From NCBI RefSeq assembly GCF_024502345.1, contig NZ_JALDNN010000001.1: a DNA stretch of 64,000 bases, one strand, 5' to 3'. Each line of letters starts with the position of its first letter. Within the stretch, counting starts at the first letter, position 1. The position numbers and the translations under genes were made by a program. The notes below the pieces were generated by a model, which did no database searches, was not told the DNA's origin, and was given only the letters and a program-made list of their open reading frames with translations. Positions 3,345-54,599 of this stretch are shown piece after piece. The DNA comes from Escherichia coli (GTDB taxonomy: Bacteria > Pseudomonadota > Gammaproteobacteria > Enterobacterales > Enterobacteriaceae).

Positions 3345-4595
3345 ATGGATGTCATGAGAAGTGTTCTGGGAATGGTGGTATTGCTGACGATTGCGTTTTT
3401 ACTGTCAGTAAACAAGAAGAAGATCAGCCTGCGTACCGTTGGCGCGGCGTTAGTGTTACAGGTCGTGATTGGCGGGATTATGCTTTGGTTACCGCCAGGG
3501 TGTTGGGTCGCTGAAAAAGTCGCTTTTGGCGTGCATAAAGTGATGGCGTACAGCGACGCGGGTAGCGCATTTATCTTCGGTTCGCTGGTCGGGCCGAAAA
3601 TGGACACGCTGTTTGATGGCGCAGGATTTATCTTTGGTTTCAGAGTGTTACCGGCAATTATCTTCGTCACCGCGCTGGTGAGTATTCTCTATTACATCGG
3701 TGTGATGGGGATCTTAATTCGCATTCTCGGCGGTATATTCCAGAAAGCATTAAATATCAGCAAGATCGAGTCATTCGTCGCGGTCACTACCATTTTCCTC
3801 GGGCAAAACGAAATTCCGGCAATCGTCAAACCCTTTATCGATCGTCTGAATCGCAATGAATTATTTACAGCGATTTGTAGTGGCATGGCCTCGATTGCTG
3901 GTTCGACAATGATTGGTTACGCCGCACTGGGCGTACCTGTGGAATATTTGCTGGCGGCATCGTTAATGGCGATCCCAGGCGGAATCTTGTTTGCCCGCCT
4001 GTTAAGCCCGGCTACGGAATCTTCGCAGGTTTCTTTTAATAACCTCTCTTTCACCGAAACACCGCCAAAAAGCATTATTGAAGCCGCCGCGACAGGGGCA
4101 ATGACCGGGCTGAAAATCGCCGCAGGTGTGGCGACAGTAGTGATGGCATTTGTCGCCATCATTGCGTTAATTAACGGTATTATCGGCGGCGTTGGCGGCT
4201 GGTTTGGTTTTGAACATGCCTCGCTGGAGTCCATTTTAGGTTATCTGCTGGCCCCACTGGCGTGGGTAATGGGTGTTGACTGGAGTGATGCGAATCTTGC
4301 CGGGAGTTTGATTGGACAGAAACTGGCAATAAATGAATTTGTCGCTTATCTCAATTTCTCACCCTATCTGCAAACGGCTGGCACTCTGGATGCTAAAACC
4401 GTGGCGATTATTTCCTTCGCGTTGTGCGGTTTCGCTAACTTTGGTTCTATCGGGGTGGTGGTGGGGGCGTTTTCTGCGGTTGCACCACACCGTGCGCCGG
4501 AAATCGCCCAGCTTGGTTTACGCGCGCTGGCGGCGGCGACACTTTCTAACCTGATGAGTGCCACCATTGCCGGGTTCTTTATTGGTTTAGCGTAG
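3345..4595 (+). CDS. nupX: NupC-family nucleoside transporter, 416 aa; close paralog of the ORF at 155-1405
   Basis: ORF track; near-collinear similarity to psuT along the full length; position downstream of rihB. Confidence 0.85.
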   Translation: MDVMRSVLGMVVLLTIAFLLSVNKKKISLRTVGAALVLQVVIGGIMLWLPPGCWVAEKVAFGVHKVMAYSDAGSAFIFGSLVGPKMDTLFDGAGFIFGFRVLPAIIFVTALVSILYYIGVMGILIRILGGIFQKALNISKIESFVAVTTIFLGQNEIPAIVKPFIDRLNRNELFTAICSGMASIAGSTMIGYAALGVPVEYLLAASLMAIPGGILFARLLSPATESSQVSFNNLSFTETPPKSIIEAAATGAMTGLKIAAGVATVVMAFVAIIALINGIIGGVGGWFGFEHASLESILGYLLAPLAWVMGVDWSDANLAGSLIGQKLAINEFVAYLNFSPYLQTAGTLDAKTVAIISFALCGFANFGSIGVVVGAFSAVAPHRAPEIAQLGLRALAAATLSNLMSATIAGFFIGLA

Positions 4596-4604
4596 TGTGC
4601 GATT

Positions 4605-6606: not shown

Positions 6607-6658
6607 CTCCTGTTAAACCCGCTGGAGGAAAACGGTAATGATAGCGGGTTAACAGGAG
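6607..6658 (-). promoter_or_regulatory. Long inverted repeat (about 15-bp arms, about 19-nt loop) between yeiH stop and nfo start; the right arm contains the nfo Shine-Dalgarno
   Basis: CTCCTGTTAAACCCGCT ... AGCGGGTTAACAGGAG seen directly. Confidence 0.35.
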
Positions 6659-20684: not shown

Positions 20685-20743
20685 TGTGATTGTGGTCCGC
20701 ATTCGGTCATAAACGCACATAACATCATGATCTGTGTGGTTTT

Positions 20744-20917
20744 GTAGGCCGGATAAGGCGTTCACGCCGCATCCGGCGACAGGAGCCAAATGCCGGATGC
20801 AACGCTGGCGCGTTTTATCCGGCCTACAATGAGTTCAACATACTGATTTGTATGGTTTTGTAGGCCGGATAAGGCGTTCAAGCCGCATCCGGCGACAGGA
20901 ACTAAATGCCGGATGCG
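20744..20917. repeat. BIME: cluster of about 4 REP units in alternating orientation
   Basis: Repeated GCCGGATAAGGCGTTCACGCCGCATCCGGC and its reverse complement. Confidence 0.85.
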
Positions 20918-20926
20918 TCTCTGGTT

Positions 20927-53797: not shown

Positions 53798-53908
53798 ATA
53801 TTCATCCCTGAAATGTATTAATGAAATAAACGATATTTTACGCGCAATAAATGTTTGGCGCATTAGTTGTTTGAGCGAAAAATATCTGGAAAGCAGATCA
53901 CAGTAAAT

Positions 53909-53991
53909 AAAAAAACCTGCTGGTGAGGCAGGTTCTTTTATTTACTATTTTCAGGCCTAACACCACAGCCTGTGCAACATCGTGTTCCAAC
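53909..53991 (-). ncRNA. orzP: Predicted ~80-nt divergent small RNA (OrzO/OrzP-like antitoxin RNA), copy A
   Basis: Minus-strand promoter (-35 TTGCAA 54021-54026, 17-bp spacer, -10 TATAAT 53998-54003); minus-strand intrinsic terminator (stem ACCTGC/GCAGGT then U7) at 53909-53934; 5' region repeats leader sequence at 54138-54157. Confidence 0.5.
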
Positions 53992-54366: not shown

Positions 54367-54518
54367 ATAAAATGATTACTGTTTTTATTAATTCATCATA
54401 TAACTCATTTTTATTTATAAATTCATCGATTTTATATTCAACGCACCATTTGACCGGGATGTGAATATTTATGTTGGGCTATTGGCAAAAAATATCTGGA
54501 AAGTAGATCGCAGAAAAT

Positions 54519-54599
54519 AAAAAAACCTGCTGGTGAGGCAGGTTCTTTTATTTACTACAGTGACGCTAACTTGCTGATTGTGCAACATTTCGTACCAAC
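54519..54599 (-). ncRNA. orzO: Predicted ~80-nt divergent small RNA, copy B
   Basis: Minus-strand -10 TATAAT (54606-54611) and shared -35 TTGCAA (54629-54634); terminator hairpin plus U7 at 54519-54543; 18-nt complementarity (one G-U) to leader at 54749-54766. Confidence 0.5.

Follow-up and report, generated by a model that had tools for sequence, protein, structure and literature searches.

The inverted repeat between yeiH and nfo of Escherichia coli is real and conserved, and within its own limits it holds both the -10 hexamer of nfo and the 5' end mapped for this gene. Because promoter and 5' end sit inside the repeat, the mRNA of nfo lacks the 5' arm; it starts in the loop, and the hairpin can therefore form only in RNA that reads through from yeiH. 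Judged from the modelled folding of such RNA, the chances appear about even that the hairpin insulates the translation of nfo from the transcription of yeiH. This insulating function is a prediction, combined with one published 5'-end map.

The repeat would, by this mechanism, be the promoter and leader of nfo folded back on itself. RNA activated by SoxS under oxidative stress would begin in the loop, without the 5' arm and with an accessible ribosome-binding site (RBS). The yeiH gene would be under a separate, YeiE-type control, and its read-through RNA would carry both arms and fold into a hairpin of about -26 kcal/mol in which the Shine-Dalgarno sequence (SD) is buried. The synthesis of endonuclease IV would be uncoupled in this way from yeiH transcription, within a 73-nt region that has no canonical terminator. 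The untranslated nfo segment might also open to Rho, and the hairpin would then be left as a stable yeiH 3' end. We infer that yeiH transcripts do run on into nfo, that the hairpin as modelled would block translation in vivo, and that the blocking of read-through translation is the reason why the repeat is kept.

Anatomy of the repeat and position of the nfo promoter

The analysis covered a 64-kb stretch of E. coli DNA (the window), the minus strand of which is the MG1655 plus strand at yeiH-nfo-yeiI (MG1655 coordinate = 2257439 minus window coordinate); RefSeq annotation confirms the identities of yeiH and nfo. The earlier note had described two arms around a 19-nt loop, with AGGAG in the 3' arm, and this anatomy and its coordinates were borne out by both the sequence and RNAfold (Table 1). 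The intergenic region measures 73 nt, and the anti-SD portion of the 5' arm is CTCCTG.

Table 1. Features of the yeiH-nfo intergenic region (window coordinates)
Feature	Position	Strand	Remarks
SoxS/MarA/Rob box-like site ATCGCATAAACCACTACATC	6681-6662	minus	overlaps yeiH stop; ends 18 bp upstream of -10 hexamer
yeiH stop codon TAA	6675-6673	minus	sequence and RefSeq annotation
Hairpin 5' arm CTCCTGTTAACCCGCT, 16 nt	6658-6643	minus	also -35/-10 spacer of nfo promoter
nfo sigma-70 -10 hexamer TATCAT	6643-6638	minus	conserved columns in 31 loci and PATSER match
Hairpin loop ATCATTACCGTTTTCCTCC, 19 nt	6642-6624	minus	last five -10 bases, discriminator region, nfo 5' end
nfo mRNA mapped 5' end	6628	minus	-29 from ATG, in loop; PMC2760140 Table S1, three 454 reads
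Hairpin 3' arm AGCGGGTTTAACAGGAG, 17 nt, one bulged U	6623-6607	minus	start of nfo leader, ends in SD
nfo Shine-Dalgarno AGGAG	6611-6607	minus	7-nt spacer to ATG
nfo start codon ATG	6599-6597	minus	

The RNA folding that had been proposed as a check gave a single stem of 16 pairs and one bulged U at -25.8 kcal/mol (z = -5.0), an energy matched by none of 200 dinucleotide shuffles (RNAfold). The z value was -6.4 when the hairpin was folded in its stop-to-ATG context. The ungapped repeat finder reports the repeat as two pieces of 13 nt and 8 nt because of the single bulged U. When both strands of the 64-kb window were scanned in 56-nt segments, only 0.46% of these reached -25 kcal/mol; with a rank of about 40 among the clustered hairpins, the yeiH-nfo hairpin is unusual within the window, yet not unique. 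Among the most stable hairpins of the window are those of a REP-like palindrome cluster at 20737-20920 (GCCGGATGCGGC..., TTGTAGGCCGGATAAGGCG). Two near-identical 19-bp hairpins with a 7-nt loop, located 610 nt apart at 53902-53946 and 54512-54556 (A[G/A][T/A]AAATAAAAAAACCTGC / GCAGGTTCTTTTATTTACT), look like bidirectional terminators.

The yeiH-nfo locus is present once in 5425 of the 5426 complete E. coli genomes, and MG1655 and the most divergent E. coli match have the same intergenic sequence. A dispersed repeat (REP/BIME, ERIC or other) is ruled out by this single copy in 5425 genomes. No second copy of the arm was found in the 64-kb window with up to 3 mismatches allowed, and a covariance model of the orthologous loci gave no match beyond the orthologous locus in 521 kb. 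The Rfam 15 scan of the repeat returned matches at chance level only (E = 3-6; 15 bits as against gathering scores of 34-81), and the two families hit, mir-1260b and Sphinx_2, were discarded.

The -10 hexamer straddles the point at which the 5' arm gives way to the loop. The first T, the A and the last T are the most important positions of a sigma-70 -10 element. In an alignment of 31 Enterobacteriaceae loci from about 20 genera, four positions of the hexamer TATNAT (T, A, T and the closing T) are invariant and its two middle positions vary, which reads as a conservation signature of the promoter type. The upstream site ATCGCATAAACCACTACATC agrees with the marbox/soxbox consensus with 2 mismatches, a match that is not significant alone (19 matches vs 16.3 expected in the window). 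The same sequence is predicted as a SoxS site for nfo in supplementary file 6 of PMC2760140 (TCATCGCATAAACCACTACATC), and nfo is a gene of the SoxS/marbox regulon in PMC2989944 and PMC3709825. The only perfect match to the marbox consensus AYNGCACNNWNNRYYAAAY in the window (ATCGCACACTACGCTAAAC) is located at 4585-4603 (-), between nupX and yeiI, the 3' ends of which converge.

Published data also place transcription initiation in this region. Mendoza-Vargas et al. (2009; PMC2760140, Table S1) called the -10 element of nfo as 'acccGCTATCATtacc' with a PATSER score of 4.83; their 5' ends were mapped without triphosphate determination, and the nfo end at -29 may be primary or processed. This end lies 10 nt past the hexamer, slightly farther than usual, an offset that might be explained by the loss of the preceding run of four T in 454 sequencing. 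By genomic SELEX, Shimada et al. (2014; PMC3946193) found the yeiH>nfo spacer to be bound in vitro by the sigma-70 holoenzyme of RNA polymerase. The nfo start is absent from the TSS tables of unstressed E. coli and Klebsiella cells in PMC3415461, which place the yeiH TSS of unstressed cells 17 nt upstream of yeiH. A TSS that the same study assigns to yeiI lies 258 nt upstream of the yeiI start, inside the nfo coding region (window ~5997, minus strand). The consensus promoter scan gave a single match, TTAACA-17-TACATT at 6616-6588, which was rejected as the nfo promoter because the start would fall inside the nfo reading frame. In the start-site region (6624-6633, minus strand; L004-L034) a run of T and then a run of C are kept, as GTTTTCCTCC, and as TTTCCCCC in many genera; the CCUCC of this region resembles the anti-SD of 16S rRNA.

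A different promoter is conserved upstream of nfo outside Enterobacteriaceae and Erwiniaceae. Yersiniaceae, Pectobacteriaceae, Hafniaceae, Morganellaceae and Budviciaceae carry an extended -10 element, TGnCATAAT, about 25-35 nt upstream of the nfo ATG (L035-L037, L043, L044, L047, L049, L050, L062, L065-L073, L075, L080), with a predicted nfo leader of 19-21 nt; in Yersinia and Serratia it is preceded by a -35 hexamer TTCAAT at 17 bp. The presence of this element in the other families therefore makes a promoter immediately upstream of nfo appear to be a feature of the whole order Enterobacterales.

The earlier note had made the meaning of the repeat depend on where nfo transcription starts; a start inside the repeat, it said, would speak against a hairpin in the nfo mRNA. 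Both the hexamer at the junction and the 5' end at 6628 are located inside the repeat. The interpretation therefore moves from the regulation of nfo mRNA to the handling of yeiH read-through. The sequestration of the SD, also suggested there, falls away for the SoxS-driven mRNA of nfo itself and survives only for read-through RNA from yeiH.

Predicted occlusion of the nfo ribosome-binding site

The effect of the upstream sequence on the RBS was expressed as an opening cost, i.e. the predicted free energy to open positions -18 to +3. In E. coli, the cost was 16.2 kcal/mol for the read-through RNA, as against 9.0 kcal/mol for the promoter-proximal RNA and 7.4-7.6 kcal/mol for read-through RNA in which the 60 nt before the start had been shuffled, a rough doubling (16 vs 7-9 kcal/mol). 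The 31 Enterobacteriaceae loci behaved similarly, with means of 16.5 kcal/mol for read-through RNA and 7.6 kcal/mol with shuffled upstream sequence, and with a mean difference of 10.9 kcal/mol between read-through and own RNA. The promoter-proximal nfo RNA folds unremarkably when taken alone (z = -1.2 to -1.4). The hairpin is retained in the minimum-energy fold of the read-through RNA in a 141-nt context (z = -3.7).

The predicted occlusion of nfo is the most extreme among 42 genes of the window region (z = 8.2); the 41 control genes have a mean z of 0.05 (sd 1.7), and 5 of them exceed z = 2. Among the Enterobacteriaceae loci, 25 out of 31 show occlusion with z>2. Upstream occlusion in Yersiniaceae, Pectobacteriaceae and Morganellaceae (z>2 in 8 of 49 non-Enterobacteriaceae loci) was dropped, because 5 of the 41 unrelated E. 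coli genes also exceed this value. The only other gene of the 42 with a strong predicted occlusion of its RBS is yohO, a small protein gene after mlrA (z = 6.4), which starts at L082:22219 (+) of MG1655, corresponding to window ~41782 (-).

Conservation of the stem and rival explanations

The main rival to insulation is that the hairpin is the 3' end of yeiH, either as a non-canonical terminator or as an exonuclease barrier after Rho termination, and that it overlaps the promoter and SD of nfo only owing to the shortness of the 73-nt spacer. We regard this as unlikely, though deserving of serious attention. No canonical terminator is present between yeiH and nfo in E. coli: the terminator scan of the hairpin gave nothing, its 19-nt loop lies outside the short-loop range of 3-8 nt, and its tail UCCUCGCAUG has no U tract. 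Only 2 of the 31 Enterobacteriaceae loci pass the terminator criteria; both are from Citrobacter, with a T-rich tail and a 9-nt loop that passes only the looser screen of 3-9 nt. The termination of yeiH transcripts, another possibility raised earlier, is thus not supported in its canonical form in E. coli, and the Citrobacter versions keep it alive in that they are terminator-like. No yeiH or nfo 3' end appears in the available parts of the text of a Term-seq study, and the accessible portions of the supplements of PMC7815308 and PMC6131387 contain nothing on nfo or yeiH. No report of yeiH transcripts reaching nfo was found in the literature searched.

The comparison with other families speaks in favour of a 3'-end origin. 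A separate yeiH terminator is present in Serratia, Yersinia, Providencia and Edwardsiella and absent in Enterobacteriaceae. The terminator of Edwardsiella ictaluri, CACCCTGTTAACC-loop-GGTTAGCAGGGTG-TTTTT, has its 5' arm at the same offset from the yeiH stop as the E. coli core CCTGTTAACC, and both Edwardsiella terminators (L062:2395-2440 and L075:2371-2420) have 5' arm sequence in common with the E. coli 5' arm. This suggests that the E. coli repeat is derived from a yeiH terminator like that of Edwardsiella. A 3'-end function nevertheless leaves unexplained the exact complementarity of the outer stem to the SD in most genera. Insulation and the formation of a yeiH 3' end are mutually compatible, because both handle read-through and an untranslated nfo segment invites Rho. 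A joint history can be entertained, with somewhat less than even confidence, in which an ancestral yeiH terminator was stretched around the nfo promoter in Enterobacteriaceae to become a gate that allows endonuclease IV to be made only from SoxS-initiated transcripts and silences those derived from yeiH.

It is improbable that the hairpin has no present function, being either a decaying relic of the yeiH terminator or a chance complementarity between the promoter spacer and the SD region, and the conservation of the stem bears directly on this. The comparison set consisted of 80 Nfo-encoding Enterobacterales loci among the matches listed, which do not include Salmonella and Klebsiella. In about 65 of these 80 listed loci, yeiH is directly upstream of nfo, with spacers mostly of 39-150 nt, and a hairpin with recognisable arms is confined to 31 of the 80, from about 20 Enterobacteriaceae genera. 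The spacer of Erwiniaceae is just as compact, yet it has no occluding hairpin, which counts against insulation. The spacers of two Yersinia loci (L035, L049) and of Pectobacterium betavasculorum (L041) are 255-402 nt long, with an insert ending ...GCAGCCAACGCACATGCAGCTTGAAGTATGACGAGT that resembles an ERIC/IRU element.

Evidence that the pairing itself is selected is mixed. The ACCCGC of the 5' arm is nearly invariant in the 31 Enterobacteriaceae loci, and the inner arms ACCCGC / GCGGGT are highly conserved in their alignment; ACAGGAG is conserved in most Enterobacterales loci. The arms persist, even though the loops between them differ greatly in size and sequence. In all 27 loci that bear an SD, the minimum-energy fold pairs at least part of it. 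Paired cells amount to 80-82%, as compared to 36-50% with the partners slid by 1-3 columns. Double changes are found in the stem, namely U-A to A-U in Enterobacter sp. Bisph1, U-A to C-G in Shimwellia and A-U to G-C in Kosakonia. The four spacer differences between E. albertii and E. coli all fall outside the arms, in the loop and in the SD-ATG spacer.

A covariation signal was not obtained: the score was 0.076 in the MAFFT alignment vs 0.078 in shuffles, and 0.083 vs 0.075 in the model-fitted alignment, where 77 of 500 shuffles scored as high. For neither alignment did RNAalifold arrive at a consensus structure; the probable cause is the loop, which is rich in gaps and differs in length between loci. 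Since covariation is at shuffle level and RNAalifold gave a null result, the upkeep of the stem appears to be mainly sequence conservation. The column identity of the outer 5' arm (0.50) is also no better than that of nfo third codon positions (0.53), a further point for a hairpin without function. Several observations oppose this: the shuffles mentioned above never fold as well; most of the approximately 20 genera keep the stem although their synonymous sites are near saturation; and outer-arm duplexes formed within species (-11.55 kcal/mol) bind better than those formed between species (-10.57 kcal/mol; permutation p = 0.0066) in an alignment-free comparison. Citrobacter and Kluyvera have lost the outer stem and SD, a point against insulation, and have rebuilt in the same position a different, terminator-like inner stem, TATACTC/GAGTAT. 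The SD constrains the 3' arm in any case; only the 5' arm argues for the pairing being kept, as it is a promoter spacer on which no other constraint is known. Four loci of Citrobacter and Kluyvera (L005, L006, L013, L015) have no recognisable SD within the 20 nt preceding the nfo ATG (GGCGGGTTTAATTTATG).

It is highly unlikely that the hairpin regulates the mRNA of nfo itself, with the main transcript starting upstream of the repeat and with temperature, an sRNA or a protein gating the SD. The stem does bury the SD in the predicted fold, and the published 5' end might have arisen by processing within the loop. Against this stand the promoter-type conservation of a -10 hexamer inside the repeat, the distance of the SoxS box-like site from that hexamer, the short leaders that the TGnCATAAT promoter would give in all the non-Enterobacteriaceae families carrying it, and the lack of an Rfam match.

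A DNA palindrome for a dimeric regulator repressing the nfo promoter, which the earlier note had also offered, can hardly be credited because the arm cores of different genera lie anywhere from 15 to 54 nt apart (30 loci), which is incompatible with a fixed half-site spacing, and the outer arms are replaced in Citrobacter by a new stem from other sequence, even though the arms flank the -10 hexamer and start site as is typical of an operator and their inner parts are highly conserved; we know of no regulator with an ACCCGC / GCGGGT palindrome motif.

Implications and comparison with known systems

If nfo is insulated as proposed, two differently regulated genes only 73 nt apart would still be expressed independently without a terminator, and the spacer of the nfo promoter would double as an anti-SD against upstream transcripts. 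RNA-seq coverage would then be misleading, as yeiH read-through would be counted as nfo mRNA with no protein made from it. The components, a SoxS promoter and an SD-sequestering stem, are ordinary, and no new field is opened. The logic of insulation is already known elsewhere; for nfo, no earlier report of it was found in the searchable literature. A description of the nfo hairpin was likewise not found there, and an earlier mention of the dyad, e.g. in the 1988 nfo sequence paper, is possible; no paper printing the yeiH-nfo intergenic sequence was found in the literature searched.

In class II SoxS/MarA/Rob promoters, as described in the work of Martin and Rosner, the marbox overlaps the -35 region and keeps a fixed distance to the -10 element. 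The forward, marbox-like 20-mer of nfo, which overlaps the -35 region and ends 18 bp from the -10 hexamer, would fit this arrangement, whereas the complementarity between spacer and leader is not a feature of the class. The hairpin shares with Rho-independent terminators a stable stem-loop directly after the yeiH stop, its 5' arm being positionally homologous to that of Edwardsiella, but differs from them in the long loop, the missing U tract and the enclosed promoter.

The transposase genes of IS10 and IS50 are protected from outside transcription by 'fold-back inhibition'. As at nfo, the RBS is part of an inverted repeat close to the beginning of the gene, and transcripts from the resident promoter carry the distal repeat only. 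Impinging transcripts carry both repeats and are untranslated, the analogue of which is predicted here for yeiH read-through. IS200 has both a left-end terminator that stops impinging transcription and a stem-loop that sequesters the SD (PMC4513863). These elements are mobile and inserted in random contexts, whereas yeiH-nfo is a fixed chromosomal pair that is syntenic across Enterobacterales.

Another parallel in arrangement is with genes that have a promoter within a hairpin. In phage T4, the genes e (lysozyme), soc, I-TevI and 49 have a late promoter inside a hairpin, and their early read-through RNA is silent. As predicted for nfo, long transcripts fold so that the SD or start codon is hidden in the hairpin; the proximal promoter lies inside the latter, and its transcript, lacking the 5' arm, is translated. 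The T4 arrangement is an experimentally shown temporal switch between early and late expression, whereas nfo would use a host promoter responding to SoxS, with a function that is predicted only, and its upstream transcript belongs to an unrelated membrane-protein gene, yeiH. Both structural features of the class, the pairing of the SD and a start inside the hairpin, are found at nfo. If the insulation of nfo holds, it would be a housekeeping chromosomal case, within a stress regulon, of a mechanism whose known examples come mostly from phage T4 and insertion sequences.
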